A stretch of 32,000 bases of DNA from Gemmata obscuriglobus. Its GTDB lineage: Bacteria; Planctomycetota; Planctomycetia; Gemmatales; Gemmataceae. The translations under genes and the position numbers were made by a program. Positions 1,022 through 25,824 of the stretch are shown here, one piece after another. Positions within the stretch are counted from its first letter, which is position 1; every line of letters starts with the position of its first letter. The stretch is from NCBI RefSeq assembly GCF_008065095.1, contig NZ_CP042911.1, forward strand, positions 6,960,001-6,992,000, in the 5' to 3' direction. The notes under the pieces were generated by a model. It was not told where the DNA came from and ran no database searches. It was given only the letters and a program-made list of their open reading frames with translations.

Positions 1022-1864
1022 ATGTCTCGTCTCGCCGCCCTCACCCTGCTCTGCGGTCTGCTGCTGCTCAACGATGGCAGAGGCCAGGAACCGAAAGGGA
1101 ACCCCTGGGGCAAATCCGCACCGGCGCCGAAGCTCCAGCGCGCCGTTTACGCCGTCAAGAACGCCGACCCGGCCGTGCTCGCCCAGGTGATCGGACCGCA
1201 CTTCAGGGGCGAGGCCAGCGCGTTCGCCGCACCGCCCGGGTCGGGCAACGCGGTGCTCGTCAGCGGCACCGCTGAAACCGTGCCCGAGGTGATCAAACTG
1301 CTCGAACTGCTGGACCGCAAGCCGCGCACGGTCGAGATCGAAGTTACCATCGCCGAGGTGCCGGCCAAGGACTGGAAGGAAGCCGAGCCGAAGCACGAGG
1401 AGCTGGCCAAGTGGGGGCAGCGGATCAAGCTGACGGCCGTCGAGGGGCAACCGGTGTCTACCCAGATGGGCGCCAGCAAGCCGATCGTGACCAGCACCGC
1501 GGTCACCCCCGGCGGGTTCGGCGGACCGGGGGGAGCCGGCGGACCGGGGGGAGCGGCCGGGGGCCGGGGCGGGTTCCAGCAGCGGTCGATCAGCTACCAG
1601 GATGTCGGAACGACCGTGAAGGCGTCGGCGCGGGTCGGGGCCGACGACATTGTGGCCGTCGAGTTGAGCGTGAAGGGCACCCGGGTCCGAACGCCGGACG
1701 CGACCGATGAGCCGGCGGCGCACTCAGTGGAGACCGGCTCACTGACCACGAATGTCAGCGTTCCGGCCGGGAAAAGCGTGGTGGCCCAGGCGGTGCGAAC
1801 CGAGGGGAAAGGCGGGGCCACGATATCGGTTGTGGTCGTCACCGCGCGCCCGACTGCCAAGTAA
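1022..1864 (+). CDS. Short secretin-like protein: one NolW-like secretin N-domain plus a minimal secretin core, with a signal peptide
   Basis: In-frame ATG at 1022 gives MSRLAALTLLCGLLLL (signal peptide); the track ORF starts upstream at GTG 869. AVYAVKNADPAVLAQVIG...NAVLVSGTAETVPEVIKLLELLDRKPRTVEIEVTIAEV resembles the short secretin N-domain. IKLTAVEGQPVSTQMG..., ISYQDVGTTVKASARVGADDIVAVELSV... and SLTTNVSVPAGKSVVAQAV... resemble the secretin C-domain core. Confidence 0.6.
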   Translation: MSRLAALTLLCGLLLLNDGRGQEPKGNPWGKSAPAPKLQRAVYAVKNADPAVLAQVIGPHFRGEASAFAAPPGSGNAVLVSGTAETVPEVIKLLELLDRKPRTVEIEVTIAEVPAKDWKEAEPKHEELAKWGQRIKLTAVEGQPVSTQMGASKPIVTSTAVTPGGFGGPGGAGGPGGAAGGRGGFQQRSISYQDVGTTVKASARVGADDIVAVELSVKGTRVRTPDATDEPAAHSVETGSLTTNVSVPAGKSVVAQAVRTEGKGGATISVVVVTARPTAK

Positions 1865-1933: not shown

Positions 1934-2032
1934 CTACCGCCAGTGCCGGTGATGATGGTGGTGCGGGTGGCAGCACCCCGCGGCCGACAGGAGCAGCACA
2001 GCGGCGAACACAGCGCAGCAGATCGAACGCAT
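1934..2032 (-). CDS. Candidate 32-aa His-rich micro-lipoprotein (MRSICCAVFAAVLLLSAAGCCHPHHHHHRHWR)
   Basis: Below the track's size cutoff; translated by hand. The ATG is the complement of 2030-2032 and the stop is the complement of 1934-1936. GAGG lies 7 nt upstream of the ATG on the minus strand. A hydrophobic signal-like segment ends in AAG-C (lipobox-like), followed by CCHPHHHHHRHWR. Confidence 0.3.
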   Translation of the reverse strand: MRSICCAVFAAVLLLSAAGCCHPHHHHHRHWR

Positions 2033-2350: not shown

Positions 2351-5300
2351 ATGGACGCGGTCCACACATCGGCCCGCGGCCGCACGCCCGCCGGGCGCCC
2401 GCGCCGCACGAAGGCGGGGCGAGCGGCTGTTCTGTTCCTGCCGGTTCTCCTGGCGTTGGCTGTGTGCGCCGCCGTTGCCTACGCCAAGCAGCCGCCCGCG
2501 CCGAAGCACCCGACCAACCCGGTCCTCCCGGCCGCCGGCGACGGCACCCGCGACCCCAAAGACCCCAAATGGTCCACCGACCCGTCTGACCCGTTCCCCA
2601 TGCCGCCGGAACTGGCCAACGTCGAGCTGATGAAGCAAACGCCCGCGGAGGCCTACGCCAAGTCCGCCGGGTGCATGGCGTGCCACAAGGGGGTGGGCGA
2701 CCCGCACGGCAAGGACACGCTCCGCATCGGCTGCACCGACTGCCACGGCGGGGACGCCACCACCACGGACAAGAACCGGGCGCACGTGCTCCCGTCGATG
2801 CCGCAGTTCTGGCCGTCGTCGGGCAACCCGGTTCGGTCCTACACGCTCCTGAACAACGAGTCGCCGGCGTTCGTCCGGTTCATGAACCCGGGCGACTTCC
2901 GCATCGCGCACATCTCGTGCGGCACCGCCGGGTGCCACCCGAAAGAGGTGCAGACGAACCGCAAGCAGATCATGGCCACCGGGTGCATGCTGTGGGGCGC
3001 CGCGGCGTACAACAACGGCACCCTGCCGGTGAAGCGCGCGATCGTGGGCGAGGCGTACGGCATGAACGGCGCGTCGCTCATGCTCAAGACGTACCCGCCG
3101 CCCACCCCCGAAGAGGAGAAGCGCGGGGTCGTCGCGCAGCTCGTGCCGCTGCCGCGGTTCGAGATGAGCCAGCCGGGCAACGTGCTCCGCATCTTCGAGC
3201 CGGGCGGGCGGTTCCTGCCCGAGATCGGCATCCCCGAGCGGATGGACGAGCCCGGCCGCACCCGGGTGCGTCTGAGCCTGCGCGGGCTGGGCACCAGCAA
3301 CCGCACGGACCCGGTGCTCGTCAGCGCCGGCAAGACCCGCCTGTTCGACCCGACGCTCAACTTCCTGGGCACCAACGACAACCCCGGCGACTACCGCTCC
3401 AGCGGGTGCAGCGCGTGCCACGTGCCCTACGCCAACGACCGGTCGCCGGTCCACTCCGGCTCGTACGCCAAGTTCGGCAACCGCGGGCTCACCGCCAACC
3501 CCGACCCGACCATCCCGAAGAACGAGCCCGGGCACCCGATCGACCACAAGTTCACCAACGCCATCCCGACCAGCCAGTGCATGGTGTGCCACATGCACCC
3601 CGGCACCACGGTCATGAACAGCTACCTCGGGTTCATGTGGTACGACGAGGAGTCGGACGGGCGCCACATGTACCCCGCCAAGCAGAAGAACCCGACCGCC
3701 GAGGAGCTGATCCGCTCGATGCTGCGGAACCCGAACGAGTCGGCCGCCCGGGGGCACCTCGCGGACCCCGAGTTCACCGCCAACCTGGCCGACCTGAACC
3801 CGCACCTGTCGAAGGTCCACTTCGCGGACTTCCACGGCCACGGGTGGGCGTACCGCGCGGTGTTCAAGAAGGACAAGAAGGGGCACTGGACCGACTACCA
3901 GGGGCGGTTCGTCGGCCCGCCCACCGCGGCGAAGATGGCCGCGGCGGTGGACTGGTCGAACAAGGCCCGGGCGTTCCACCAGGACCACCGGTTCCCGGAC
4001 CCCAAAACCGGGTCGGCGGAGGCGAAGAAGGCGGAACAGGCGCTCGGCGACTCGTGCCGCAGCGGCCAGCCGGTGCACATGCTCGACATCCACCTGGAGA
4101 AGGGGATGCACTGCGTGGACTGCCACTTCTCGCAGGACATGCACGGCAACAACCGGCTGCACATGGAGGTCCGCGCGGCCACCGAGATCGCGTGCATCGA
4201 CTGCCACGGCACCCCGGCCCGGCACGCCACGCTGAAGACCAGCGGCCCCGCGAGCTACACCTCGGCGCCGGACGGCCTGGGGCGCAACCTGCTCGCCATG
4301 AAGACCCCGTTCGGGGTCCCGCGGTTCGAGGTCCGCGAGGCCCCGGACGGCACCCGGCGGTACTTCCAGAACAGCTCGGTGCAGAAGGGGCTCCAGTGGG
4401 AGCTGGTGCAGACGAAGGACGTCATCACGAAGGGGCACCCCCGGTATAACGAGAAGGCCGCGCACGCCAAGACGGTGCGGGTCGACAAGGCGACCGGGAA
4501 AATGGTGTGGGGCGAGCTGCCGGCCGACGGCCAGTGCGCCCACTCGAACGACAACATGACCTGCATGACGTGCCACTCGGCCTGGAACCCGAGCTGCTTC
4601 GGGTGCCACCTGCCGCAGCGGGCCAACGTCAAGGCCCCGACCCTGCACGCCGACGGGGACACGCAGCGGAACTACACCGCGTACAACTTCCAGACGCTCC
4701 GCGACGACGTGTACATGCTGGCCCGCGACGGCGACGCCACCGGCAACAAGATCAACCCGGCCCGGTCGAGCTGCGCGATCCACGTCACCTCGGCCAACGG
4801 GAACCGCGAGTCGATCTACGTCCAGCAGCAGACGCTGTCGGCCGAGGGGTACAGCGGGCAGGCGTTCAGCACCAACGTGCCGCACACGGTCCGCGGCAGC
4901 GGGGTGGGCGAGACCAAGCAGTGTAGCGACTGCCACCTGTCGAAGAAGAACGACAACAACGCGTGGATGGCCCAGCTCCTGATGCAGGGCACGGGCGTCA
5001 TGAACTTCATGGGCCGGTACACGTGGGTGGCGGCCGGCGAGGAGGGGCTGTTCGGCGTCCAGGTGACCGAGAACAGCGAGCCGCAGGCGGTGTACGGCAG
5101 CGACCTGCACTACTACGCGTACCCGGACCACTACAAGAAGCACGCCGCCGCCGGCGGGCTCCTGAAGAACGCCCACGAGCACCCGGGCCGCGACATCGCC
5201 AAGGGCGTGACGCGCCCGCTCAAGAAGTCCGAGGTGCTGATGGTGCAGAACCGCGGCGAGTACTGCTACGCCGCGTGCGGCGAGGGCGGGGTCCGGGTGT

Positions 5301-6382
5301 TCGACATCGCGTTCATCGACGACAAGGCGTTCGCCGAGCGGATCACCACCGCCCCGGTGTCGCCCCTGGGCCAGAAGTTCTACGTGGACACGAAGTACGC
5401 GACCTACGTCGCGGCCCCCTGCACCCCGGCCGTGGACCCGACGCGGAAGATGATCCCGGGCAACAAGGAGCAGCCGATCCACCCGCTGTTCGGGTACCTC
5501 TACGTCTGCGACAAGTACGAGGGGCTGATCCTGATCGGCGCGGCCACCACGCTCGACGGCAACCCGGTCAACAACTTCCTCAAGAAGGAGGTGTGCTTCA
5601 ACCCGGACGGGCTGCTGTACGGGGCCAAGCACGCGCACGTGGTCGGGCACTACGTGTACGTGTCGTGCGACGCCGGGCTGGTGGTGATCGACATCGACGA
5701 CCCCAAGAAGCCGAAGGTGACGAGCGTCGTCGGCGAGAAGCACCTGAAGCACCCGCACATGGTGGCGACCCAGTTCCGGTACGCCTACGTGTGCGACGAG
5801 GAGGGCCTCAAGGTGCTCGACATCACCGACCTGGCGCGGCCGGTGCCGAAGTCGAAGGTCCTGCTGCCGGACGCCCACAGCGTCTACCTGGGCCGCACCT
5901 ACGCCTACGTGGCGGCCGGGCCGCGCGGGCTCATGATCTTCGACATCCAGAACGCCGCCGAGCCGAAGTTCGAAACGGCGTTCACCGCCGGCGGCCACAT
6001 GAACGACTGCCACGACGTGAAGCTGGCGATCACGTACAACAGTCTGTTCGCCTACGTCGCGGACGGGAAGAACGGGCTACGGGTGGTGCAACTGTTCTCG
6101 CCCGAGACGCCCGGGTACGAGGGGTTCAGCCCCAAGCCCACCCCGCGCCTGGTGGCGACGTACCGGCTGCCGCACGGCGGGCACATCCTGAACGTGGCCC
6201 GCGCCCTCGACCGCGACCGCGCGGTGGACGAGAGCGGCAACCAGATCGGCGTGTTCGGCCGCGTCGGCGCCCGCCCGCTGAACGAGAAGGAGCAGCACAA
6301 GATGTACCTGCGGAACGGAACCCCGTGGTACGTCAGCGACGACCCGAAGGACGCCCTTTACGAGGAGCGCCGGCAGAAGTAA
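2351..6382 (+). CDS. Exported ten-haem c-type cytochrome fused to a C-terminal LVIVD-repeat beta-propeller
   Basis: ATG 2351 is preceded by GGGGAG. The Arg-rich N-terminus plus hydrophobic helix ...LLALAVCAAVAYA looks like a signal peptide. Nine CxxCH motifs are present (CMACH, CTDCH, CSACH, CMVCH, CVDCH, CIDCH, CMTCH, CFGCH, CSDCH) plus one CxxxxCH (CGTAGCH), spanning nt about 2672-4936. At least six LVIVD-like blades span nt about 5275-6125: GVRVFDIAFIDD, YEGLILIG, AGLVVIDIDDPKKPKV, EGLKVLDITDLARPVP, RGLMIFDIQNAAEPKF, NGLRVVQLFSP. Confidence 0.9.
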   Translation: MDAVHTSARGRTPAGRPRRTKAGRAAVLFLPVLLALAVCAAVAYAKQPPAPKHPTNPVLPAAGDGTRDPKDPKWSTDPSDPFPMPPELANVELMKQTPAEAYAKSAGCMACHKGVGDPHGKDTLRIGCTDCHGGDATTTDKNRAHVLPSMPQFWPSSGNPVRSYTLLNNESPAFVRFMNPGDFRIAHISCGTAGCHPKEVQTNRKQIMATGCMLWGAAAYNNGTLPVKRAIVGEAYGMNGASLMLKTYPPPTPEEEKRGVVAQLVPLPRFEMSQPGNVLRIFEPGGRFLPEIGIPERMDEPGRTRVRLSLRGLGTSNRTDPVLVSAGKTRLFDPTLNFLGTNDNPGDYRSSGCSACHVPYANDRSPVHSGSYAKFGNRGLTANPDPTIPKNEPGHPIDHKFTNAIPTSQCMVCHMHPGTTVMNSYLGFMWYDEESDGRHMYPAKQKNPTAEELIRSMLRNPNESAARGHLADPEFTANLADLNPHLSKVHFADFHGHGWAYRAVFKKDKKGHWTDYQGRFVGPPTAAKMAAAVDWSNKARAFHQDHRFPDPKTGSAEAKKAEQALGDSCRSGQPVHMLDIHLEKGMHCVDCHFSQDMHGNNRLHMEVRAATEIACIDCHGTPARHATLKTSGPASYTSAPDGLGRNLLAMKTPFGVPRFEVREAPDGTRRYFQNSSVQKGLQWELVQTKDVITKGHPRYNEKAAHAKTVRVDKATGKMVWGELPADGQCAHSNDNMTCMTCHSAWNPSCFGCHLPQRANVKAPTLHADGDTQRNYTAYNFQTLRDDVYMLARDGDATGNKINPARSSCAIHVTSANGNRESIYVQQQTLSAEGYSGQAFSTNVPHTVRGSGVGETKQCSDCHLSKKNDNNAWMAQLLMQGTGVMNFMGRYTWVAAGEEGLFGVQVTENSEPQAVYGSDLHYYAYPDHYKKHAAAGGLLKNAHEHPGRDIAKGVTRPLKKSEVLMVQNRGEYCYAACGEGGVRVFDIAFIDDKAFAERITTAPVSPLGQKFYVDTKYATYVAAPCTPAVDPTRKMIPGNKEQPIHPLFGYLYVCDKYEGLILIGAATTLDGNPVNNFLKKEVCFNPDGLLYGAKHAHVVGHYVYVSCDAGLVVIDIDDPKKPKVTSVVGEKHLKHPHMVATQFRYAYVCDEEGLKVLDITDLARPVPKSKVLLPDAHSVYLGRTYAYVAAGPRGLMIFDIQNAAEPKFETAFTAGGHMNDCHDVKLAITYNSLFAYVADGKNGLRVVQLFSPETPGYEGFSPKPTPRLVATYRLPHGGHILNVARALDRDRAVDESGNQIGVFGRVGARPLNEKEQHKMYLRNGTPWYVSDDPKDALYEERRQK

Positions 6383-6400
6383 GCAACGGCCCGGATTGAA

Positions 6401-6525
6401 GACAGGTTGGCCACAAAAAAGCACACAGGGCACAAAAGAAAACCAAGACAGAAGAGTGAGTTCAAACACTTCTTCTGTCTTGGTTTTCTTTTGTGCCCTG
6501 TGTGCTTTTTTGTGGCCAATCTGTC
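6401..6525. terminator. Very long, low-GC, near-perfect hairpin between convergent genes (putative bidirectional terminator or foldback element)
   Basis: Arms 6401-6458 and 6467-6525 pair over about 57 bp, with one G-T pair (6406/6520) and one single-nt bulge. The loop is agttcaaa (6459-6466). The hairpin lies between the stop of the cytochrome gene (6382) and the stop of the cupredoxin gene (6556). Confidence 0.6.
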
Positions 6526-6555
6526 TTTATCTGCCGCGTTTCGCGGCCGGTCACA

Positions 6556-7344
6556 TTACTTCGGGGACACGTCGAAGTCGGTCGGCTTCAGTTCGGTGGT
6601 CGGGCCGGTGACCTCGATCGTCTCGCCGGCGCGGCCCTTCACCCCGCCGCGGAGGCCGTTCTCGTGCCAGTACACGATCCGCACCTTGCCGGCCGGGACG
6701 TTCTTGATCTCGAAGTTCCCGTTCTCGTCGGTGACCGCGTAGTACGGGTGGTCGAAGATGCGCACGTAGCCGGTCATCCACGGGTGAACGGAGCACTTGT
6801 ACTGGATCGGCGCGGACTCCTTGACCAGCGGGGTCGGCATCGTCCAGTCGGTCTGCTTGGGCAGGTTCGGGTTGTGGGACCCGTTGTTGCCGCTCTCCCA
6901 GTAGAAGTTGTGCGCCACCGGGGACGGGTTCTTCACCACCAGCGTGTCGCCCACCCGGGCCGCGGTGACCCGCTTCACGAACACGCAGCACGGCTGGTCG
7001 ATCACCACCTCCCCCGGCTTCCGCTTGGCGTCGTCCGGGTGGAACTGGTCCTTCTTGAACTCGGCTTTCAGGTCGGTGTCGTCCGGGCGCAGGTACACGA
7101 CCACGTTTTTGACGCCCCGGCTCTTCGGGTTCACGATGACCGACTCGTCGAGCAGCGCGCCCTTGCTCAGGCAGTGTTCCTTGTCCTGGGTGACGTTGAG
7201 TTCACCGCGCTTGGGCAGGTCCTTGTCCTTCGGGAACAGCACCTGGCCCTTGACCGTAACCCACTTGTCATCAGCCGAGGCAGCGAAGCCGGTGCCGGCG
7301 AGCACAACCGCCGCGCACAGGGAGGCAAACGAGAAACGTTGCAT
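6556..7344 (-). CDS. Exported cupredoxin-like (type-1 copper site) protein with a CarboxypepD_reg-like C-terminal beta-sandwich
   Basis: The start is moved to the ATG at 7344 (MQRFSFASLCAAVVLAGTGFAASA, signal peptide). Candidate T1-Cu ligands are H in VAHNFYW and C-x2-H-x2-M in KCSVHPWM. The C-terminal YYAVTDENGNFEIKNVPAGKVRIVYWHE is a CarboxypepD_reg-like motif. Confidence 0.75.
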   Translation of the reverse strand: MQRFSFASLCAAVVLAGTGFAASADDKWVTVKGQVLFPKDKDLPKRGELNVTQDKEHCLSKGALLDESVIVNPKSRGVKNVVVYLRPDDTDLKAEFKKDQFHPDDAKRKPGEVVIDQPCCVFVKRVTAARVGDTLVVKNPSPVAHNFYWESGNNGSHNPNLPKQTDWTMPTPLVKESAPIQYKCSVHPWMTGYVRIFDHPYYAVTDENGNFEIKNVPAGKVRIVYWHENGLRGGVKGRAGETIEVTGPTTELKPTDFDVSPK

Positions 7345-8552: not shown

Positions 8553-9524
8553 TCACACCACTTCCGTCGGCGCCACCACCGGCGTCCGGCTCTTCGCGTA
8601 GGCCGCGCAGCCGACGATCCCCGAGTCGTCGCCCAGTTGCGCCGCGACGCACCGCACGCCGGCGGCGGCGCCCGGGAGCGTGTACCGCTGGGCGATCTCC
8701 CAGATCCGCTCGATGAAGTTGTCGCCCAGCGCGCCGGTCACCCCGCCGCCGAGGACGATCACCTCCGGGCTGACGAAGTTGATGAGCCCGCCCAGCGCGC
8801 CGCCCAGGGCGCGAGCCGCGTCGTCGACCAGTTCGACCGCGATCGGGTCGTCCTTCTGGTAGTACTCGGCGAGTTGCGAGCTGCGGACGGCGCTCAGGTC
8901 CACGCCCTTCCATTCCTTGCGCACGCGCTTGGGGGAATCGTCGAGCTTGTCCTTCGCCCGCTTCATCATGTACTTACGGCCGGCGATGCCTTCGAGGTGC
9001 GTGCCCCGCCGCCAGTGGACGACGAGGTGCCCGATCTCGCCGGCGTTGCCGTTGAACCCGGTGAACAGCTCGCCGTTGAGGATCAGCCCGCCGCCCACGC
9101 CGGTGCCGACGAACACGCCGAGCACGTTGCGGGCGCCCTTGGCCGCGCCGTAGGCGAACTCGCCGTAGGTGCCCATCCGCACGTCGTTCTCGACGACCAG
9201 CGGCCACCGCCAGGACGCGGGCATCAACGGCCGCACGTCGACATCGCGCCACTCGAGGTTGGGCGCGAACTTGACCCGCGTGGTGCCCAGCTCGATCTGC
9301 CCCGGGACGCCGATCCCCATCCCGCGGATCTGGGCCGGGTCGACGTTCGACTCGCGGACCACGGCGTCGACGGCTTTGACGATGTTGCCGAACACGCCCG
9401 CCGGGCCGGTGTCGGCGGCGGTGGGCTGTTTGGATCGCGCAAGTAACCGCAGGTCGTCGTCGAACAGCCCGGCGAGAATCTTGGTTCCGCCGAGGTCGAC
9501 GCCGAGCCAGTATCCGGTGCTCAT
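8553..9524 (-). CDS. ROK family sugar kinase/regulator paralog 1 (lacks the Cys zinc motif)
   Basis: MSTGYWLGVDLGGTKILAGL is an N-terminal ATP-binding (actin-fold) motif. FVGTGVGGGLIL and GNAGEIGHLVVHWRRGTHLEGIAG follow, but the CxCGxxGC of canonical ROK proteins is missing after the GH. Confidence 0.85.
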   Translation of the reverse strand: MSTGYWLGVDLGGTKILAGLFDDDLRLLARSKQPTAADTGPAGVFGNIVKAVDAVVRESNVDPAQIRGMGIGVPGQIELGTTRVKFAPNLEWRDVDVRPLMPASWRWPLVVENDVRMGTYGEFAYGAAKGARNVLGVFVGTGVGGGLILNGELFTGFNGNAGEIGHLVVHWRRGTHLEGIAGRKYMMKRAKDKLDDSPKRVRKEWKGVDLSAVRSSQLAEYYQKDDPIAVELVDDAARALGGALGGLINFVSPEVIVLGGGVTGALGDNFIERIWEIAQRYTLPGAAAGVRCVAAQLGDDSGIVGCAAYAKSRTPVVAPTEVV

Positions 9525-10902: not shown

Positions 10903-11823
10903 TTACCCGCCGAACTTCTGCCGCGCCAACGCCAGCGCGCCGTGGATTACCACCTCCTCGCCCAGCGCCGCGGGTACGATGTCGGTCAGCCCGGCGAAGG
11001 GCGGAAATGTGCGGTCTGCAACAGCCGCTTGGAGGGGATTGAAGAAAAGCTCCTGTCCCATCAAGGAAACGCCACCACCAATGATGATGAGTCGCGGGCA
11101 CAGCAAGGTAATCAGTTGCGCAATCCCTTCCGCAAGCAGCTCAATTGCTGTGCTCAGAAGTGCCTGTGCTGTCAGGTCTCCGTTACGTGCCGCTGCTGCC
11201 ACGTCTTTCGTTGTGATGCGCCCGTTCCGTTTCAATTGCGTAAAAAGAGGAGTTGCGATCCATGCAGCACGTTCCTCAATGGCCGCGCCAGACGAATACT
11301 GTTCGACCGGCCCGCCACTCGAAGGCACACGTAAATGCCCGATCTCTGCGGCCCCTCTTCCGACGCCGCGGTAGATCTGACCGTCGATGATGAGCCCGCC
11401 GCCCACGCCGGTGCCGACCGTGATGTAGAAGATCGGCGACAGCCCCTTCCCTGCGCCGAACAGCGCCTCACCAAGCCCGGCTACGTCGGCGTCGTTGCAC
11501 AGTACCGCCGGCGCGCCCACGAGGTCGCTGACCCAATCGGCGAGCGGGAAGCCGTCCCAGCCCTGAATTTGATGTGATTTGATAACCGTCTGGCTGCGGT
11601 CGTCGGTGGGTCCGCCGAACCCGACTCCGACGCCCTTCAGTGAACCGCGATCGGTGTTCGCTTTCGCGAGCAGTTCCGGCACGGCACTGATGATTTGCTT
11701 GCGGATGCCTTCGCCGCCCTCTGCAGGGTTTACGGTGCCGCGCCAGAGGGCGTGAATGTGACCGTCGCCGTGCCCCAGTCCGAGTTGGAGCTTCGTACCG
11801 CCGATCTCGATCCCGAGGAACAT
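10903..11823 (-). CDS. ROK family sugar kinase paralog 2 (lacks the Cys zinc motif)
   Basis: MFLGIEIGGTKLQLGLG..., CNDADVAGLGE, ITVGTGVGGGLII and GAAEIGHLRVPSSGGPVEQYSSG are present, with no CxCGxxGC. Confidence 0.85.
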   Translation of the reverse strand: MFLGIEIGGTKLQLGLGHGDGHIHALWRGTVNPAEGGEGIRKQIISAVPELLAKANTDRGSLKGVGVGFGGPTDDRSQTVIKSHQIQGWDGFPLADWVSDLVGAPAVLCNDADVAGLGEALFGAGKGLSPIFYITVGTGVGGGLIIDGQIYRGVGRGAAEIGHLRVPSSGGPVEQYSSGAAIEERAAWIATPLFTQLKRNGRITTKDVAAAARNGDLTAQALLSTAIELLAEGIAQLITLLCPRLIIIGGGVSLMGQELFFNPLQAAVADRTFPPFAGLTDIVPAALGEEVVIHGALALARQKFGG

Positions 11824-11871: not shown

Positions 11872-14538
11872 TCAATCTTCGTCATCGTCATCGTCGTCGT
11901 GATCTTTCTTCGCGGCCTTCAGCGGCACGAAGAACGCGGCCCGCACCGGCGGCGGCATCGGGCTCCGCTGGCCCCGCACCGCCTTCCAGATGATCTCACT
12001 GAACAGGATGTCGTCCAGCGTGTCCTCCTTCGCGAGGTTCTGCTTCTCCATCCACGCGGCCCCGAACCCGCCGGGCTTGTTCTTCTCGGTGAGGTCCACC
12101 TTCGGCGCCTCGTGCGAGTAGCCCGACAGGTCCGGCTTCGCGGTGAACGAGTTGTACATCGGTCGCGCCGCGGCATCGAACTGGCTCATCGGCTTGACGC
12201 CGAGGATCAGTTCCATCGTCCGCAGCATGCTGGTCGTGGAGTAGAGCGTGCTGTCCACGAACTTGCGCTTGGTGTACGGCGACACCACCAGCGCCACGGA
12301 GCGGTGCGCGTCCACGTGGTCCGGGCCGTTCTGGGTGTCGTCCTCGATCACGAAGATCGCGGTCTCTTTCCAGAACTTGCTCTTGCTGACCGCTTCCACC
12401 AGGAGCCCGAGCGCGAGGTCGTTGTCCGCCACCATCGCGGTGACCGTGGGCGCCCCGACCTTCGTTCCGGCGGTGTGGTCGTTGGGCAGCCGCACCACCT
12501 GCATCCGCGGCATTTCGCCGGTCTGCTCGAACCGCTTCAGCTCGCTGATGAACCGCTCGGCGCGTTTCACGTCGGTGTATTCCAGATCGTAGCCGCGGAA
12601 CCGCGGGTCGATTTTGCCCTCGAGCGCCGGGACCGCGGGGATGCCGTCCTCGAACCCGCCGTCCGGGCGGCGTTTCCCGTTGTTGACCCACTCGCCGTAG
12701 GCGCGGTAGCTCACCTTGGCCTCCGCGCACTTGTCCCACAAGTAGCCGCCGCTGGGCCGGGCGATCAGGTCCTTGGCCCCCTCGCTCGGGTACCCGAAGA
12801 TCTTGCCGCCACGGTAGCTGAGCGGCCAGATCTTCTCGACGAAGTCGGTCGCGTAGGCGCCCATCGTCCACTCGTGCCCGTCGGCGGACACCTCACCGTC
12901 CACGTACAGGTTGTCGAGCAGCACGAACTGCTTCGCGAGTTTGTGGTGGTTCGGGGTCACGCTCTCCGGGAACAGGCACAGCGACGCGTCGCCGTTGCCC
13001 TCCTTGATGTCCCCGAACACCTGATCGTAGGTGCGGTTCTCCTTCACGACGTAGATGCAGTACTTGATCGGCGACGCCTCGCCGAGCTTCTTCGGGATCG
13101 GGTTACCGGGTTCGACGGCATCGGCCCGCACGGCGCTGTCGTTGCGGAGCGGGCTGCACGCGTAGGCGGTCTTGCTGTGCGTGGCCATTTGATCGGGCGT
13201 GGGCACCCGCATCACCGTCAACGAACCCTTCAGAAGCTGGCCGATGTACTCGTTCAGGTTCCGCGACTGCGGCACCAGCGGGTTCGGGCCGTTGCGGTTC
13301 GACTTCGACGACAGGCCCTTACCGTTCGCGATGTAGAGCTGCTTGTCGCTGGCGTTGTACCGCACGCTGGTGGGATACCAGCCGGTGGGGACGAACCCGA
13401 GCGAGACCGCCTTGGTGCGGTCCTTGACGGCGAACACGCTGAGGTTGTTGGCGTCGGCGTTGGCGACGAACAGCATCTCGCCGTCGGGCGTGAGGGTCAG
13501 GCTGTTGGGGGTGTTACCGTTGGGCGCGTTCGGGTACAGCGCGCAGTTGATCGTTTGCAGCCCCTTGCCGGTGGCCGGGTCGATCACACTCACCTTCGTG
13601 GAGTTCGCGCACGCGACGTAGAGCGCGTCCCCCTTCGGCGCGAGGACCATCTCCGTCGGGTGTTCGGCGGTGGGCCAGGTCTCGACCACCGCGTTCGTCT
13701 CCAGGTCGATGACGGCCACGCTCGCCCGCGCCCACAGCGACACGAAGCACCGCTTACCGCCCGGTTCGACGAGGCAGGTGTACGGGTACACCTGCGGCTC
13801 CGGCTCCTTCGGCTCCTCGCTCGGGGCCTTCGCTTTGGGCTTCTCCTCCTTGCGCCCGTCCGGCGGGGACGGCGGCTCGCCCTTGCCCGGCTCCTTTTTC
13901 GCCGGCTCGGGGTTGAACGGGATCACCTTTTTGTTGTCGGGATTCACGAGCGGGACGCGGACCACGGCGTCGGCCCACGGGACCGCGACGAACAGGTCCT
14001 TGCCGGTCGGGTCGAACGCCAGCCCGCCCACCACGCCCTTCTTCTTGGGAATGCTCGCGTCGAGGGCCTTACCCTTGGTGAGATACCCCTTGTCGAAGTC
14101 GAACACGTGAACGGTTTCGTCCTCGCCGCCGCTGGCGAAGACCTGCCTCCCGTCGGGGCTCCACGTCAGGCCGTAGAACGCCTGGTGGACCTGCACGCGC
14201 GACAGCACACGAGTGCGTTCGGGGTTCAGGTCAACGATCACGATCTCGTGCGGGCCGTACCCGGCGCACAGCACCGCGGCGAACTCGCCGGTGGGGTGGA
14301 GGGCGATGTTCACCGGGAAGTCGCCGGTCTCGATGTGCCGGCCGGCGGGCTTCAGGGACCACTGGTTCGGGAGCTGCACGAACCCGTCGCGGCGCAGCCC
14401 GGGCAGCACCCGTTCGAGCGGCTTGGATTCCGTTTTCGGCTCGCCCTTGGCCGGCGGCTGGGCCGGCGCGGTGACGCCGAACAGTCCGACCCCGGCCGCG
14501 AGCAGCAGCCCGGCGGCCCACAGCGATTGCGCGTGCAT
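11872..14538 (-). CDS. Exported bifunctional YncE-like beta-propeller / phosphoesterase-family (PLC/AcpA-type, alkaline-phosphatase superfamily) protein
   Basis: The start is moved to the ATG at 14538 (MHAQSLWAAGLLLAAGVGLFGVTAPA, signal peptide). The N-terminal half has propeller-like repeats (SPDGRQVFASGG, DPTGKDLFVAV, PKGDALYVACANS, TPDGEMLFVANAD). The C-terminal half has IYVVKENRTYDQVFGD, GHEWT, VRLPNDHTAG and VIEDDTQNGPDHVDAHRS (phosphoesterase family). It ends in KKDHDDDDDDED. Confidence 0.85.
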   Translation of the reverse strand: MHAQSLWAAGLLLAAGVGLFGVTAPAQPPAKGEPKTESKPLERVLPGLRRDGFVQLPNQWSLKPAGRHIETGDFPVNIALHPTGEFAAVLCAGYGPHEIVIVDLNPERTRVLSRVQVHQAFYGLTWSPDGRQVFASGGEDETVHVFDFDKGYLTKGKALDASIPKKKGVVGGLAFDPTGKDLFVAVPWADAVVRVPLVNPDNKKVIPFNPEPAKKEPGKGEPPSPPDGRKEEKPKAKAPSEEPKEPEPQVYPYTCLVEPGGKRCFVSLWARASVAVIDLETNAVVETWPTAEHPTEMVLAPKGDALYVACANSTKVSVIDPATGKGLQTINCALYPNAPNGNTPNSLTLTPDGEMLFVANADANNLSVFAVKDRTKAVSLGFVPTGWYPTSVRYNASDKQLYIANGKGLSSKSNRNGPNPLVPQSRNLNEYIGQLLKGSLTVMRVPTPDQMATHSKTAYACSPLRNDSAVRADAVEPGNPIPKKLGEASPIKYCIYVVKENRTYDQVFGDIKEGNGDASLCLFPESVTPNHHKLAKQFVLLDNLYVDGEVSADGHEWTMGAYATDFVEKIWPLSYRGGKIFGYPSEGAKDLIARPSGGYLWDKCAEAKVSYRAYGEWVNNGKRRPDGGFEDGIPAVPALEGKIDPRFRGYDLEYTDVKRAERFISELKRFEQTGEMPRMQVVRLPNDHTAGTKVGAPTVTAMVADNDLALGLLVEAVSKSKFWKETAIFVIEDDTQNGPDHVDAHRSVALVVSPYTKRKFVDSTLYSTTSMLRTMELILGVKPMSQFDAAARPMYNSFTAKPDLSGYSHEAPKVDLTEKNKPGGFGAAWMEKQNLAKEDTLDDILFSEIIWKAVRGQRSPMPPPVRAAFFVPLKAAKKDHDDDDDDED

Positions 14539-14716
14539 GTTGATGTCCCCGAGAGGATGGAGGGGGCGGTTATTGTGCGAAGTCGCGGCGGGCGCGGCGC
14601 GAAGATGGCGCGAAGGTGCGAGCGGAGAGCTTCTTCCCCACCCGCCCGGCAATTTATTGGGCCGCGGTAGCGCCCTTGAAGCACCTGTGGGGTAACACAA
14701 TTCCCGGAGGTGCCGC

Positions 14717-17506
14717 ATGCCCGCCACGCCCGCCGAAATCGCCCGCCGCGCACTCGCCGGACGCATTGCCCCACCGGCGGAACTACTGGCGCGGTATGCC
14801 GCGGGGCGCGACCCGGACGCGTTCGCCGCCCTGGTGCGACAGTTTGGCCCGCTGGTGCTGGGCACGTGCCGCCGGGTGCTCGGCCAGTCCCCCGACGCCG
14901 ACGACGCCTTTCAAACGGTGTTCCTGGCGCTCGCACGCAGGGCCGGTTCGTTCCGCGACCCCGCCACCCTGCCCGCGTGGCTCCACCGGGTCGCCCTCCG
15001 CACCGCGCGCCAAGTCCGCCCCCGACATCGACCTGCGCCCCACGGGACCGCGGAACCGGTCGCCCCCACCGACCCGTTCGCGACGGTGGTCTGGCGGGAC
15101 GTGCGGCGGATACTCGACGAGGAACTGGACGCGCTACCCGACAAGCTCCGCGGCCCGGTGCTGTTGTGCTGGCTCGACGGTCTCACGCGCGACGAAGCGG
15201 CGAGCGTCCTCGGCGTGCCGCTCGGCACCCTGAAGCGGCGGTTGAGCGAGGGACGTGAGCTGCTTCGCGAACGCCTGACGCGGCGCGGGCTGGCGCCGGC
15301 CCTGGCGGCGTGCGCGGTGCTCGCACCCGACGGGCTCCGGGCGGACGTACCGCGCCCCCTCGCGGAGGCCGTTGCCGACGCCGCACGGCGTGTACCCATG
15401 CGGAGCGCCGTGTCCGTCTGGGCGGCCGTCGCAGCGGCGGTTGCCGCGTGCGGCGTGGCGCTCGTCACGGCCGGGCACGCGCCGCCCGAGGTCGCTCCGC
15501 CCCCACGCGCGGCAGTAGCGCTCGAGCGCCCGGCCGGCCTCCCAGATGTGCCGCTGCCGGCCGGCGCCGTGGCCCGCTTCGGAAGTATGCACTTCAGTGC
15601 CCCCGATCGCATCTTCTCGGCCGCCCGATCGCCCGACGGCACGCGCCTGGCGTTGGGAGACGGGCTCACGGTTCGGGTGTACGAGAGCACGACCTGGCGC
15701 CTGCTGCACACGCTGGCGGCAGACGGAGGCCCGGACGCCTGGCAGAAGCGCCAGTCGCTCGCGTTCTCTCCCGACGGCAACCGGCTCGCGTACGCGCAAA
15801 ACGGAAAGCTCGCGCTCACGTGGGATTTGACGACCGGCCGGTTGACGCGCCGGTTCGACCGCGACGGCTGGGTGTGGCAGGGCTTCTGCGCGTTCACCCC
15901 GGACGGCCTGCTGGCCCTCTCAGACGAGGAAGAGCTCCGGTTCTTCGATCCGGTCACCGGGGCCGAGAAGCACGCCGTGGGTGTGCCGAACGCGATCGCG
16001 TTGTCACCCGACGGCAAGCACTACCTTCGGCACACCGGACGCGCCGGGGCCGGAACACTCGTGCTGGGGAACGCGACCACCGGGGTGGACCTGCACCGGC
16101 TCGATACCGCCGTCGGTTCTGAGCCCGAGGTATCGTTCTCACCCGACGGCACACGCTTTGTTCTGATGACGAGGTATGGTGCCGCGGTCGAGGTGTGGGA
16201 CGTGGCGAAGCGGGCGCTGGTGAAGCGGCTCCCGGCGCCGCCCCAGCCGACCGATGGCGAGCGATCGGGGTACGGTGCCGCCTTCACGCCCGACGGGCGC
16301 GAGTTCTGGCTCAAGCTCCCTGGCAACGATCTCATGCGGTGGGACGCCGCCACGTTCCTTGAACTGCCACGGTTCGCCCCCGGAACGTCACAGTCGCCGC
16401 TCACAATTGCCCCGCTGCCCGACGGCCGGACCGTTCTCGTGCCCTGCGACATCGGGCGCGTGCTGGTGTTCGACCGCCAGACCGGGCGGGAGCGCCCGGT
16501 GCCGGGCCGCTACCGCGACGCCGCGTTCGCGCTCTCGCCGGACGACAAGTTCGTGGCGGTCGGCGACGCGAGCGGGCGCATCGACCTGCTCAACGCCGCC
16601 ACCGGCAGGCTGGAGCGCGTCGTGCGCGAAAGCGGTGACCCGGTTCATAAACTGGTGTTCGGCCCGAACGGGCGCACGCTCGGCGCGGCCGAGGTCGTTT
16701 ACAACGGTATCGACCTGACAAAGGACCGCGCCGCCGTGCGCGTGTACGACACAACGGACGGGAAGGAACTGCGGGCACAAAAGCGAGACGGCGCGAAAGA
16801 CAGAGAGTACCGGTCGCACTGGCCGTTACTGCCCCTTGGGTTCACCGCCACCGATCGCATGGTTATCTCGCGTTACCCGCAGAACACGCGCCTCTGGGAC
16901 TTCAAGACCGGGAAGCACACGGATCAACTTGCGGCGTCCAACATTCACGCGGCGCTCAGCCCTGACGGGACATTACTGGCAACGGAAGAACACGGCGAGG
17001 CGGTCATTACCGACGTGGCGACCGGACGCGAAACCGCTCGCGTCGAGGTCGACCCCGAGGAGAAAGCGAACCGCCGGTTCGGCGATATCATGCGGTTCGC
17101 GTGGGCGGGCGACGGCAACACGCTGGCGGCGAGCGCGCCAGGGGGCAACGTGTGCCTGATCGACCCGCGCAAGGGACGAGTCCGCACCCGAATCAACGTG
17201 GCCCGCGGCGGCGACTGGCGCTTTTCGTTCCTGCATCAACCGCTGTACCTGCCCTTCTCGATCCAGGCGCTGGCGCTGTCGCCGAACGGGCAACAGTTGC
17301 TCGCGTCGGCTCGGGGCGGGTATTACGTCGCGCTCTGGGATACCGGCGGCAGGGGTAAGCGGCTGGCGAAGCTCGAGTGCGAGTTCTCAGTACACGGCCG
17401 CGGCGCCACGTTCAGCTCGGACGGCAAGCGGCTGTTCACATTCAGCAGCACCGGTTTCGGCTACTCCTGGGACGTCGAGAATACCATCGCAGCACCGAAG
17501 AATTAA
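14717..17506 (+). CDS. ECF-type sigma-70 factor fused to a transmembrane helix and about 13 WD40/SPDG-type beta-propeller repeats
   Basis: GGAGG lies 6 nt upstream of ATG 14717. Region 2 is FAALVRQFGPLVLGTCRRVLG..DADDAFQTVFLALARRA...PAWLHRVALRTA. Region 4 is LPDKLRGPVLLCWLDGLTRDEAASVLGVPLGTLKRRLSEGRELLRERL. The TM segment is AVSVWAAVAAAVAACGVALVTA. After it come repeated SPDG/TPDG blades (SPDGTRLALGD, SPDGNRLAYAQ, SPDGKHYL, SPDGTRFVL, TPDGREFWL, SPDDKFVAVGD, SPDGTLLATEE, SPNGQQLLASA, SSDGKRLFTFS ...). Confidence 0.9.
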   Translation: MPATPAEIARRALAGRIAPPAELLARYAAGRDPDAFAALVRQFGPLVLGTCRRVLGQSPDADDAFQTVFLALARRAGSFRDPATLPAWLHRVALRTARQVRPRHRPAPHGTAEPVAPTDPFATVVWRDVRRILDEELDALPDKLRGPVLLCWLDGLTRDEAASVLGVPLGTLKRRLSEGRELLRERLTRRGLAPALAACAVLAPDGLRADVPRPLAEAVADAARRVPMRSAVSVWAAVAAAVAACGVALVTAGHAPPEVAPPPRAAVALERPAGLPDVPLPAGAVARFGSMHFSAPDRIFSAARSPDGTRLALGDGLTVRVYESTTWRLLHTLAADGGPDAWQKRQSLAFSPDGNRLAYAQNGKLALTWDLTTGRLTRRFDRDGWVWQGFCAFTPDGLLALSDEEELRFFDPVTGAEKHAVGVPNAIALSPDGKHYLRHTGRAGAGTLVLGNATTGVDLHRLDTAVGSEPEVSFSPDGTRFVLMTRYGAAVEVWDVAKRALVKRLPAPPQPTDGERSGYGAAFTPDGREFWLKLPGNDLMRWDAATFLELPRFAPGTSQSPLTIAPLPDGRTVLVPCDIGRVLVFDRQTGRERPVPGRYRDAAFALSPDDKFVAVGDASGRIDLLNAATGRLERVVRESGDPVHKLVFGPNGRTLGAAEVVYNGIDLTKDRAAVRVYDTTDGKELRAQKRDGAKDREYRSHWPLLPLGFTATDRMVISRYPQNTRLWDFKTGKHTDQLAASNIHAALSPDGTLLATEEHGEAVITDVATGRETARVEVDPEEKANRRFGDIMRFAWAGDGNTLAASAPGGNVCLIDPRKGRVRTRINVARGGDWRFSFLHQPLYLPFSIQALALSPNGQQLLASARGGYYVALWDTGGRGKRLAKLECEFSVHGRGATFSSDGKRLFTFSSTGFGYSWDVENTIAAPKN

Positions 17507-18315: not shown

Positions 18316-19308
18316 TCATTTGCCGCGGGCGAGCAGCCGGGCACAGCCGGCGGCGCCGATGAACCCGGCGTCGGAGCCCAGGCTCGCGAACGTGATCTTG
18401 ACCGACTTGGTCGGGAACGGCAGCCCGAACCGCTTCACGTAGTTGTCGATCTTCGAGCGGAACCACTCGCCGGCGGCCACCATGCCGCCGCCGAACACGA
18501 TCACCTGCGGGTCCACGGTGGCGATCACCGCGCACGCGCCCAGGGCCAGGTAGTACGCGGTGTCGTCCACCACCTTGAGCGCCAGCTCGTCGCCCTCGGC
18601 GGCGTGCTGGAAGATGACCTTGGCGGTGAAGTCCTCGTCGTTGGCGGTGTAGTAGTTGCGGAGCTTGCTCGCCGGGCCGCGCCAGCACGCCATGTCCTCG
18701 CGGGCGCGGCGCACCACGTTGGTGGCGCTGCCGTAGGCCTCGAGGCACCCGCGGGCGCCGCACCCGCACTGCCGCCCGGTGTCCGGCATGGCGATCCGCA
18801 GGTGCCCGAGTTCGCCCCCGTGGCTGTGCTCGCCCTCAATGATCCGGTCGTCGATGATGATCCCGCCGCCCACCCCGGTGCCGAGGGTGAACAGCACCAT
18901 GCTCCGCGCGTCGCTCGCGGCCCCAACCCAGAACTCGCCGTAGGCCGCCGCGTTGGCGTCGTTCTGGTAAGCCGTGGGCTTGCCGAACGCTTGCGCGACG
19001 TGGTCGCGAACGGGGACGTTCTTCCACGGCTTGAGGTTCGGCGGGTCGAGGATCAGGCCCGCCTTGATGTCCATCAGGCCCGGAGTTGCGACCCCGATGG
19101 CGGCGATGTCGGCGAGGGTCAGGCCGGCGGCGGCGACGGCCCGGCGGATCGTCTCGCACATCGTCTCGAGCCCTTCCTCCTGGCCGCGCTCGGGGTTGGT
19201 GTCCATCACCACCGGCTTCGACAGCGGAACCCCGGCCCCGGTCACCACGGCGGCCTTCATGGTGGTGCCGCCGACATCGAGCCCGACGTAATTTTCCGGA
19301 GCGGCCAT
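18316..19308 (-). CDS. ROK family glucokinase-like paralog 3 (canonical zinc motif present)
   Basis: The start is moved to the ATG at 19308 (MAAPENYVGLDVGGTTMKAAVV). YQNDANAAAYGE, LGTGVGGGIII and GELGHLRIAMPDTGRQCGCGARGCLEAYGS are present; the last is GH...CxCGxxGC. Confidence 0.88.
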   Translation of the reverse strand: MAAPENYVGLDVGGTTMKAAVVTGAGVPLSKPVVMDTNPERGQEEGLETMCETIRRAVAAAGLTLADIAAIGVATPGLMDIKAGLILDPPNLKPWKNVPVRDHVAQAFGKPTAYQNDANAAAYGEFWVGAASDARSMVLFTLGTGVGGGIIIDDRIIEGEHSHGGELGHLRIAMPDTGRQCGCGARGCLEAYGSATNVVRRAREDMACWRGPASKLRNYYTANDEDFTAKVIFQHAAEGDELALKVVDDTAYYLALGACAVIATVDPQVIVFGGGMVAAGEWFRSKIDNYVKRFGLPFPTKSVKITFASLGSDAGFIGAAGCARLLARGK

Positions 19309-19611
19309 CGTTACCTCGTGGGTGGGTGTGCGGTGCCGGTGCCGGCGGCCCGTGCGTTGCCGGTCCCGGAACGAAACACGAGACACCAAACGCCGCACAC
19401 GTTCCACCCGTTTTACCGACGGCATCACGGTTGTGACAGGTGAAGCGCTAACGGCGGTTAACAGCGGTCGCCGGCGCTAACGCCCGGCCGCGGCCGGGGC
19501 AAATTGCCCGGTTCCGCGCGCCCCGGCCGCGGGCCGTGACCTACGGTTGGGGAGAATGTAAGCCCACCCCGCGACCCGCTCAGCGGTCGCCCCGCTCGGA
19601 AGCTCCGGCAC

Positions 19612-23859: not shown

Positions 23860-23975
23860 CGGTTTCTCCGGGCCGTCGCGCGGGCGCATCGGGCGCCGCG
23901 CCGCAGTTGATTGAACCAGAGCCGGTCGCGTCACGCAAGGGGCCACTTCGCAGCATTCTCCGTGCCCGGCCGCGG

Positions 23976-24587: not shown

Positions 24588-24746
24588 GTCGCGCTCGTGG
24601 CGTGCGTGGTAAGGCGGTCCTACGGACCAGTTTACCCGCCCGCGCCAACTTGTCGGGCCGGTTCGGCGTCATATCATTGTGATTCGTCCAACTCGGCGAA
24701 GCCGCCCGCTCTGCATCCACACAGGCCGCAACACGAACGGACGAAC

Positions 24747-25733: not shown

Positions 25734-25824
25734 CAGGTTCGGCGGCGGGCGCCCGCGCGACCCGCTGTTCGGCCCTGGGTTCCTGTCTTCTGTCCTCTGT
25801 CCTCTGATCGAGCGGCGAAGAACC

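Follow-up and report, generated by a model that had tools for sequence, protein, structure and literature searches.

The 32,000-nucleotide stretch of Gemmata obscuriglobus DNA analyzed here (contig NZ_CP042911.1, positions 6,960,001 to 6,992,000 of the forward strand; hereafter the window) carries, at 2351-6382 (+), a gene for a large exported protein in which a decahaem cytochrome c is fused to a C-terminal LVIVD beta-propeller. The family of such proteins has no name and no solved structure, and literature searches found no paper on it. We tentatively regard the protein as the outermost redox subunit, and the last in line, of a pathway that would carry electrons out through the envelope, with a confidence that approaches even but falls short of it. 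This reading draws on the protein itself, which has ten haems with a full set of candidate His/Met ligands, no special haem motif, NrfB-like N-terminal haems, and a haem 10 next to a propeller without obvious cofactor ligands in what is modeled as a rigid single body. It also draws on a relative, P0141, in which an 18-haem wire lies at the N-terminus, and on the linked genes of other lineages, which include a barrel-like gene that is probably co-transcribed, an upstream chain traceable to an NAD(P)H-type flavoprotein, and an HbpS-like partner with secretion signals. Moreover, within the cluster conservation is highest for the cytochrome and the barrel, the electron-transfer module occurs as a separate cluster in other Gemmata species, and clusters of porin, propeller, and cytochrome have already been proposed for extracellular transfer.

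In the proposed pathway, cytoplasmic NAD(P)H would be oxidized by a NuoEF-like flavoprotein, and the electrons would then pass to a 4Fe-4S protein that binds cyclic nucleotide monophosphate (cNMP) and cross the inner membrane via a four-helix protein with the His pattern of a dihaem b cytochrome. Decahaem and pentahaem cytochromes may serve as the periplasmic carriers. Electrons would enter the decahaem-propeller protein at its N-terminal, NrfB-like haems 1-3 and move down the haem chain to haem 10, beside the propeller. Docking to a dedicated outer-membrane barrel, to the acceptor, or to both may be the task of the propeller; metal oxides, humic matter, and other extracellular oxidants are conceivable acceptors. 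The decahaem gene is solitary in the window, and we infer the pathway from its relatives, and with it the direction of electron flow, the outer-membrane location, the acceptor, and the presence of partner genes elsewhere in G. obscuriglobus.

The open reading frame (ORF) at 2351-6382, stop codon included, codes for 1343 amino acids, and its ATG start is backed by matching "MDA..." N-termini in relatives. The window has a guanine plus cytosine (GC) content of 69%, and the decahaem gene, with an overall GC the same as that of its flanks and a third-position GC of 0.98, is a genuine, native gene. The native GC and the orthologues found throughout the Gemmataceae do not suggest horizontal transfer into G. 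obscuriglobus. Contig ABGO01000134 (Gemmata obscuriglobus UQM 2246) encodes an identical protein, as do five more contigs. No sigma-70-like promoter was found.

The CxxCH motifs start at residues 108, 128, 353, 410, 588, 615, 738, 749, and 858, and CGTAGCH lies at 190-196. Nine CxxCH motifs were thus seen against approximately 0.03 expected by chance, as estimated from the protein's own Cys and His frequencies, and no CxxCK or other special haem motif was found in the G. obscuriglobus protein. A hydrophobic stretch near the N-terminus leads into AYA|KQ, and N-termini across the family resemble Sec/signal peptidase I-type signals, with a lipobox-like motif in just 15 of 220. The features of the gene are as follows (window coordinates and strand, with the basis of each in parentheses):

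2351-6382 (+): decahaem cytochrome c fused to an LVIVD propeller, 1343 amino acids (ORF, motifs, ABGO01000134 match, third-position GC 0.98)
2351-2485 (+): predicted Sec signal peptide, residues 1-45, cut after AYA (sequence reading)
2486-2644 (+): Pro-rich low-complexity linker, residues 46-98, outside the modeled region (sequence)
2645-4990 (+): haem domain, residues 99-880, predicted to be mostly helices and loops (AlphaFold2 models, Foldseek, PDB profile search)
2672-2686 (+): haem 1, CMACH, residues 108-112 (motif and conservation)
2732-2746 (+): haem 2, CTDCH, residues 128-132 (motif and conservation)
2918-2938 (+): haem 3, CGTAGCH, residues 190-196 (motif; CxxCH in some relatives)
3407-3421 (+): haem 4, CSACH, residues 353-357, within the strongly conserved block GTND.PGDYRSSGC.ACH (motif and alignment)
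3578-3592 (+): haem 5, CMVCH, residues 410-414, followed by the invariant H416 (motif and conservation)
3818-3847 (+): HFADFHGHGW, residues 490-499, in which the pair H495/H497 are candidate distal haem ligands (H497 100% and H495 92% conserved)
3938-4063 (+): residues 530-571, mostly helical in the model (alignment occupancy below 0.5; helices at model positions 428-447 and 456-472)
4112-4126 (+): haem 6, CVDCH, residues 588-592 (motif and conservation)
4193-4207 (+): haem 7, CIDCH, residues 615-619 (motif and conservation)
4562-4576 (+): haem 8, CMTCH, residues 738-742 (motif and conservation)
4595-4609 (+): haem 9, CFGCH, residues 749-753 (motif and conservation)
4604-4879 (+): predicted beta-rich subdomain between haems 9 and 10, approximately residues 752-843 (confidence scores, full versus haem-only model)
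4922-4936 (+): haem 10, CSDCH, residues 858-862, the final haem before the propeller (motif and conservation)
5003-6244 (+): LVIVD beta-propeller, read as seven-bladed, approximately residues 885-1298 (Pfam LVIVD 2.7e-18, approximately 29 AlphaFold2 strands, Foldseek)
6245-6379 (+): C-terminal tail, residues 1299-1343, outside the model, its first part conserved (R.GARP) (sequence, alignment)

An AlphaFold2 model of residues 99-1298, built with a 149-sequence alignment and without haems, has a predicted local distance difference test score (pLDDT) of 89.3 and a predicted template modeling score (pTM) of 0.91. Three parts can be distinguished: a haem domain made up of helices and loops, a subdomain rich in beta structure that lies between haems 9 and 10, and a propeller of approximately 29 strands with pLDDT mostly of 90-98. 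The high pTM means that, in the model, the haem domain and the propeller behave as one rigid unit. In a model of the haem domain only (pLDDT 83.5), positions 714-740 fell below 50, compared to approximately 75-89 with the propeller present, which points to packing of the segment ahead of haem 10 against the propeller. Both the rigid model and this dependence fit the idea, raised when the protein was originally predicted from the sequence, that the haem chain ends at the propeller. The C-terminal part carries four stretches matching Pfam LVIVD (PF08309; 65.5 bits against a cut-off of 20.2, E 2.7e-18), a family also present in the relatives, and seven LVIVD-like repeats can be counted by eye, starting near residues 885, 968, 1045, 1093, 1139, 1178, and 1222. 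At least six blades had been anticipated, and the predicted propeller, which appears closed in the model, is read as seven-bladed. Its best Foldseek fits are to the lactonase-family structures 6nau and 1ri6 (template modeling score, TM, of 0.70 on the target), which are seven-bladed, and the C-terminus is thus predicted by AlphaFold2 and Foldseek to fold as the original prediction proposed.

The haem domain has no detectable relative among the solved structures. Foldseek with the full model returned generic propellers only (cd1 nitrite reductase, lactonases, AztD, and BtuG2, with TM on the query ≤ 0.22), led by cd1 nitrite reductase with a TM of 0.20 on the query and 11% identity. Foldseek with the haem domain alone returned nothing (best E 2.4), although the model is haem-free and Foldseek is weak on loop-rich cytochromes. 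A single-sequence search of the PDB gave no match. A profile search of the PDB aligned NrfB over the region of haems 1-3 (1.7e-4) and an eight-haem nitrite reductase (TvNiR) over approximately 50 residues (E 0.015-0.027).

The family is large and widely distributed. A first protein search found 6694 relatives among the 8000 candidates scored, and the best 120 are mostly full-length (approximately 1300-1390 amino acids, 63-99% identity) and derive mainly from Gemmataceae and other Planctomycetes. Functionally named relatives among these 120 are labeled as hypothetical or "LVIVD repeat," except for one that was automatically called "formate-dependent nitrite reductase." When only the haem domain served as the query, an exhaustive HMMER scan identified 2564 cluster representatives at E ≤ 0.001, 505 of them at E ≤ 1e-30, and the full-length members were 1170-1700 amino acids long. 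With the more remote relative P0139 (42% identical) as the query, a further search collected proteins of 1108-1290 amino acids in addition to the 1648-residue P0141, and its named matches came from Acidobacteria/Thermoanaerobaculia, KSB1, Nitrospirota, and Wallbacteria. Based on a scan of one genome per species, the family occurs in at least 595 genomes of Planctomycetota and Acidobacteriota, with the best 80 loci belonging to Gemmatales, Pirellulales, Isosphaerales, Planctomycetales, Terriglobia, Blastocatellia, and Bryobacteraceae. Relatives of 1150-1450 amino acids that share the layout number in the thousands, including metagenome proteins, and the haem and propeller halves are fused in every full-length relative examined.

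In the 149-sequence alignment, conservation is 97% or higher at each of the ten haem sites. The pattern of ten haems without additional motifs was present in 12 of the 19 sequences counted, and haem 3 is CxxCH rather than Cx4CH in half (6/12) of the full-length representatives with this pattern. Thirteen further His residues (119, 145, 395, 399, 416, 495, 497, 576, 581, 598, 731, 766, and 845) are 92-100% conserved, as are M208 and M586 at 97-100%, and these candidate ligands would be enough for six-coordination of all ten haems. The alignment also has conserved K228, K328, Y220, and Y360, and the haem domain contains many invariant Arg, Asp, Asn, Tyr, and Lys residues. The propeller has no Cys and a single His (H920, 86%) at ≥ 85% conservation, with no obvious metal site, and most of its conserved residues seem to belong to the repeat motif. 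P0141 has 18 extra CxxCH motifs fused ahead of the ten-haem core, for a total of 28 haem motifs, and this addition would mark the N-terminal end as the electron input side.

These results agree with much of the original prediction. The 1343-residue exported protein with nine CxxCH motifs and one Cx4CH is borne out by the ORF, the motif count, and the Sec-type signal. A His-rich, haem-free insert had also been described between two clusters of haems; the 178-residue gap between haems 5 and 6 is real, but it is mostly conserved core, including H497 and H495, rather than an insert, and only residues 530-571 are missing from over half of the aligned relatives.

Genes were called in 88 related loci and the encoded proteins were clustered. 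In 42 of the 57 non-Gemmatales loci with enough upstream sequence, a barrel-like gene is located upstream of the decahaem gene; in 44 loci it stands directly before the decahaem gene on the same strand, with a median gap of approximately 25 nucleotides, and in locus L007 the two genes overlap by 1 nucleotide. The two genes are probably co-transcribed. The encoded protein has a core of approximately 550 amino acids without Cys-rich or haem motifs, and the family matched neither Pfam (including MtrB/PioB) nor any PDB sequence. Of the 47 barrel-like proteins, 46 have a terminal Y or F preceded by an alternating hydrophobic stretch. Such an ending is the usual signature of outer-membrane barrels, and the upstream protein appears outer-membrane-barrel-like. 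Divergent from the barrel-like gene, 37 loci encode a secreted protein with two HbpS-like domains and with dockerin and "Planctomycete extracellular" signals. Small, His-rich secreted proteins of a further family (approximately 150-280 amino acids) are encoded in 15 loci, upstream of the barrel-like gene in L024, L026, L031, L034, L038, L041, L042, L048, L050, L056, L061, L068, L070, and L072, and also in L036. Its gene mostly adjoins that of the HbpS-like partner, some members have repeats extremely rich in His at the N-terminus (HGHGHGH, HEYEHEYEH), and a Cys motif (HPRKP...DCPP.RY.M.DC.RAGNPHC) is conserved; the protein may be a metal-binding accessory.

Electron-transfer genes are located within 10 kilobases of the decahaem gene in 35 of the 54 non-Gemmatales loci. 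The set comprises one to three pentahaem cytochromes, a decahaem cytochrome, a four-helix membrane protein of approximately 290 amino acids, a cNMP-binding 4Fe-4S protein, and a NuoE/NuoF fusion. The four-helix protein has paired transmembrane His residues in the pattern of a dihaem b cytochrome and is a candidate b-haem protein. The compact module recurs in L089-L094, L015, L038, L048, and others, where the FeS protein with its cyclic-nucleotide-binding domain reaches 918 amino acids, and genes for an adenylate cyclase with GAF and FHA domains, FHA proteins, Ser/Thr kinases, and glucose-6-phosphate dehydrogenase recur nearby. No description of a compact pentahaem/four-helix/NuoEF/FeS module was found; by its appearance, the module would let NAD(P)H electrons reach the periplasm under regulation and independently of quinones. 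When Acidobacteriota are compared with Planctomycetota, identity is highest for the cytochrome-propeller (51%) and the barrel (47%), and the remaining components share 26-42% (other cytochromes 26-32%, membrane protein 35%, NuoEF-like protein 41%). In Gemmatales, the linkage is mostly lost, being kept in 2 of 11 loci, and in other Gemmata-like genomes the module of cytochrome, b-type, NuoEF, and FeS genes forms a cluster of its own. The original prediction had called for a survey of neighboring genes across Planctomycetota, and this survey gave a divided answer: the neighbors in G. obscuriglobus are not conserved, but a barrel-like gene and an electron-transfer module accompany the gene in other lineages. 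Taken together, these genes may represent an undescribed cross-phylum envelope-spanning system, in which an NAD(P)H-fed, cyclic-nucleotide-regulated, quinone-bypassing chain would feed a decahaem-propeller core of new fold, with a new barrel family and a secreted HbpS-like protein. We put this forward as a possibility that is still on the doubtful side.

Several observations weigh against electron export as the role of the G. obscuriglobus protein. The published description characterizes Gemmataceae as aerobic and chemoorganotrophic. We know of no report of extracellular respiration in this family. No partner genes were found in the 32-kilobase window by tblastn with representatives of 12 neighbor families, WD40-like noise aside, and a homologue search and cluster look-up for a G. 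obscuriglobus copy of the membrane module returned other Gemmata species only. The barrel-like assignment comes from sequence alone. Furthermore, the protein is globular with a low haem density of approximately one haem per 78 residues, has no lipoprotein anchor, in contrast to MtrC and OmcA, and is conserved far above the accompanying cytochromes, with many invariant polar and charged residues in the haem domain. Such strong conservation is more typical of a pocketed enzyme than of a surface wire.

The last of these points lead to the main alternative, in which the protein is a periplasmic enzyme that carries out multi-electron chemistry on a small soluble molecule, for example, an oxyanion, an N- or S-oxide, or a reactive oxygen species. 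A single catalytic haem would be fed by the others, the propeller would shape a pocket or channel, and the barrel would be the entry pore for the substrate. We consider this unlikely, if worth serious attention. Combinations of c haem and propeller are known from cd1 nitrite reductase and hydrazine synthase, and the former heads the Foldseek list for the full model; however, that match is generic to propellers, and the propeller here has no conserved Cys and one partly conserved His. The 51% cross-phylum identity extends over approximately 1200 residues, compared to 26-32% for the neighboring cytochromes, and the haem domain has invariant polar residues around haems 3-5 (e.g., F.NPGD.R, YNNG, KTRL.DP, and GDYRSSGC.ACH). 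The Sec signal without a lipid anchor and the low haem density would also suit an enzyme, and the conserved His and Met residues exceed the ten distal positions, which leaves spare residues for catalysis. On the other hand, the solved catalytic multihaem enzymes show no likeness to the protein beyond short haem motifs (NrfB, 1.7e-4; eight-haem nitrite reductase, 0.015) and none by Foldseek, the special haem motifs of the CxxCK kind are absent, and the unusual Cx4CH is an ordinary CxxCH in half of the counted relatives. The reducing supply chain, which begins at NAD(P)H, is what an enzyme of this kind may use, although its approximately 25 or more further haems exceed, in our judgment, the usual supply of a periplasmic reductase.

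The same haem chain could run in the opposite direction, with electrons taken up from Fe(II), Mn(II), or reduced humics as an extracellular or periplasmic donor. Haem chains are reversible, and in related loci a decahaem cytochrome shares an operon with a barrel-like gene, a pairing that resembles PioAB and MtoAB. In G. obscuriglobus, the decahaem gene also adjoins that of a cupredoxin, a typical high-potential carrier, but this gene is in none of the fetched related loci. The linked module is of the NuoEF-like NAD(P)H type with FeS proteins, and electron flow from Fe(II) to NAD+ needs energy, for which no coupling subunit was seen in the loci, nor was there linkage to a terminal oxidase. We regard inward uptake as improbable.

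A role in iron acquisition, either by assimilatory reduction of ferric iron or by haem processing, is very improbable in our assessment. The partner encoded divergently, which is conserved and has secretion signals and two HbpS-like ("haem-degrading") domains, could be taken in its favor, but HbpS-like is a family name, and the function that it implies is only putative for these proteins. The small secreted His-rich protein in 15 loci, the UniRef name "ferric oxidoreductase domain-containing" given to the counterpart of the four-helix membrane protein in Gemmata sp. G18, and the wide spread among planctomycetes generally regarded as aerobes would also agree with such a role. However, the outlay of haem would be very large for assimilation, and the 88 loci showed no linked gene for an iron transporter, a TonB-dependent receptor, or a regulator of iron uptake or use. 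That the fusion is an assembly or frameshift artefact, or that the C-terminus is no propeller, can practically be dismissed, as the same full-length protein is present on six independent contigs, relatives with the same layout exist in the thousands with the two halves joined in all full-length ones examined, the structure is predicted with confidence, and LVIVD scores above the Pfam cut-off.

Within the G. obscuriglobus window, the rest of the genes are unrelated housekeeping genes. Upstream, at 1022-1864 (+), is an exported secretin-like protein of 280 amino acids, shorter than any normal secretin, with Secretin_N and a fragment of the secretin domain separated by a Gly-rich stretch. Among the fetched loci, its gene occurs only in L001-L003, which encode the identical cytochrome. 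The convergent gene at 6556-7341 (-) encodes a secreted protein with a weak amicyanin alignment (E 0.011), four type-1 copper ligands H/C/H/M in register (AHN...C.VHPWM), and a CarboxypepD_reg-like C-terminal part; it is plausibly a cupredoxin. At 1934-2032 (-), a 32-codon ORF (MRSICCAVFAAVLLLSAAGCCHPHHHHHRHWR) has a lipobox-like LSAAGC followed by a His run. Both had been named in the original prediction as flanking context, the first as a cupredoxin and the second as a His-rich micro-lipoprotein candidate, and neither is a conserved partner: the cupredoxin gene is in none of the fetched related loci, nor is the secretin-like gene beyond those named above, and no comparable His-run peptide is encoded beside the decahaem gene in relatives, so that the small ORF may have arisen by chance. 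The decahaem gene is followed by a hairpin:

6399-6527 (strand not assigned): inverted repeat with 57-nucleotide arms, 98% complementary, and a 15-nucleotide loop (dG -119.6 kcal/mol, z -19)

The hairpin begins 17 nucleotides past the stop codon, between the convergent genes, is AT-rich relative to the genome, and has a single copy in the window. It probably acts as a terminator in both directions or is a small palindromic (mobile) element. Rfam had no match within the window.

The other genes of the window encode an inositol monophosphatase, ROK kinases, PRAI, a Uma2 nuclease, a fusion of an extracytoplasmic function (ECF) sigma factor with WD40 repeats, SDR, ScpA, and an ABC system, none of which is a conserved partner. 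The ROK-family sugar-kinase/regulator paralogues number three within 11 kilobases (8553-9524 (-), 10903-11823 (-), and 18316-19428 (-)). The fusion would be encoded by an ORF of 929 amino acids at 14717-17506 (+), in which ECF sigma regions 2 and 4 are joined to long WD40-type repeats and for which a simple gene caller preferred ORFs on the opposite strand. At 11872-14550 (-) is a large exported protein with a lactonase/WD40-type propeller, a phosphoesterase (phospholipase C-like) domain, and an acidic tail (DHDDDDDDED). The ABC system, at 23907-32000 (+), has four genes (ATPase, ABC-2 permease, ABC_transp_aux/DUF7088, and DUF4340), resembles the gliding-type GldA/F/G, and extends past the window end.

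Planctomycetota and Acidobacteriota are among the commonest bacteria of soils, peat, lakes, and marine particles, and their low-oxygen life and their handling of iron, manganese, and humic matter are poorly understood. A ten-haem protein retained at approximately 50% cross-phylum identity in at least 595 species genomes very likely has an important role. If the protein exports electrons, these phyla would count as electroactive, which bears on carbon turnover and on methane suppression in peat. If the envelope-spanning system exists as outlined, abundant "aerobic" Planctomycetota and Acidobacteriota of soil and water would gain an unrecognized route to reduce extracellular or periplasmic oxidants, and if the protein is an enzyme, it would be a new multihaem catalyst with a new fold. 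The decahaem gene is a clear experimental target because genetic methods for planctomycetes have been developed (PMC5394234).

As the original prediction had suspected, no characterized multihaem family claims the protein in searches of Pfam, NCBIfam, PDB sequences and profiles, and Foldseek. Pfam matches of the haem domain to the c3 and c7 families were sub-threshold only, and the PDB sequence, profile, and Foldseek searches gave no core similarity to NrfA, the octahaem nitrite and tetrathionate reductases, HAO, or MccA. Among named families, only ExtM (NCBIfam NF040943) matched the haem domain significantly; it scored 66.3 bits for the G. obscuriglobus protein and 102 bits for an acidobacterial relative, in three to four stretches. 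ExtM (GSU2935) is a biochemically uncharacterized protein with 12 haems in approximately 600 amino acids, encoded in the extHIJKLMNOPQS cluster of Geobacter sulfurreducens together with a porin-like protein, further multihaem cytochromes, a membrane b-type cytochrome, and a Rieske protein (PMC5877670). In this the decahaem-propeller relatives are similar, with genes for a barrel-like protein, multihaem cytochromes, and a candidate b-type cytochrome of the membrane close by. However, ExtM has no propeller, and Rieske protein and cytochrome b stand in place of the NuoEF-like, FeS, and four-helix module. Membership in ExtM is rejected, as 66.3 bits is far under the 800-bit cut-off, the protein has ten haems in 1343 amino acids, and ext-type neighbors are missing from the window and the related loci.

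Among enzymes, cd1 nitrite reductase and the hydrazine synthase alpha subunit also join c haem and propeller in a single exported polypeptide. The cd1 enzyme has an eight-bladed propeller that holds haem d1, plus a single c haem, whereas the protein described here has ten c haems and a predicted propeller of approximately 29 strands with a lactonase-like fit and without evident cofactor ligands. Membership in the cd1 family fails, the match being one of propellers in general.

The MtrAB, PioAB, and MtoAB systems resemble the decahaem-propeller loci in having a ten-haem, Sec-exported cytochrome beside a barrel-like gene, with short gaps or overlap, and more periplasmic multihaem carriers nearby. 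The haem domain here is globular, of approximately 780 amino acids, and fused to a propeller, whereas MtrA-type cytochromes are wires of approximately 300 amino acids. The DmsE/MtrA/PioA model (TIGR03508) gave no match at E ≤ 1, and the solved Mtr and OmcA structures were absent from the PDB profile and Foldseek results. An adjacent barrel gene, as expected of an MtrA-type cytochrome, was not found in the G. obscuriglobus window, and the barrel of the relatives is unrelated to MtrB/PioB by Pfam. The OmcA/MtrC model (TIGR03507) did not match either; MtrC and OmcA carry lipoprotein anchors, and the decahaem-propeller family mostly lacks a lipoprotein signal.

Clusters of a porin, an NHL propeller, and a cytochrome have been proposed for extracellular electron transfer, namely "EET1" in peat Acidobacteriota (bioRxiv 10.64898/2026.05.27.727921) and uet in Tenderiales (bioRxiv 10.1101/2022.05.06.490989). 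They share with the loci described here an outer-membrane porin, a propeller taken as a scaffold, and a multihaem cytochrome, and they occur in overlapping phyla. In these clusters, a six-bladed NHL protein (DUF5128) provides the propeller as a separate polypeptide, alongside a 13-haem cytochrome of OmcE-like type, whereas the LVIVD propeller is fused to the decahaem protein. Their cytochromes, like those of the porin-decahaem systems, have known folds. Because of the separate propeller and the OmcE-like cytochrome, the peat "EET1" is rejected as the same system. The G. obscuriglobus protein adds to the multihaem cytochromes of envelope electron transfer, and its nearest counterparts by organization are the porin-decahaem clusters and the clusters of porin, NHL propeller, and cytochrome.

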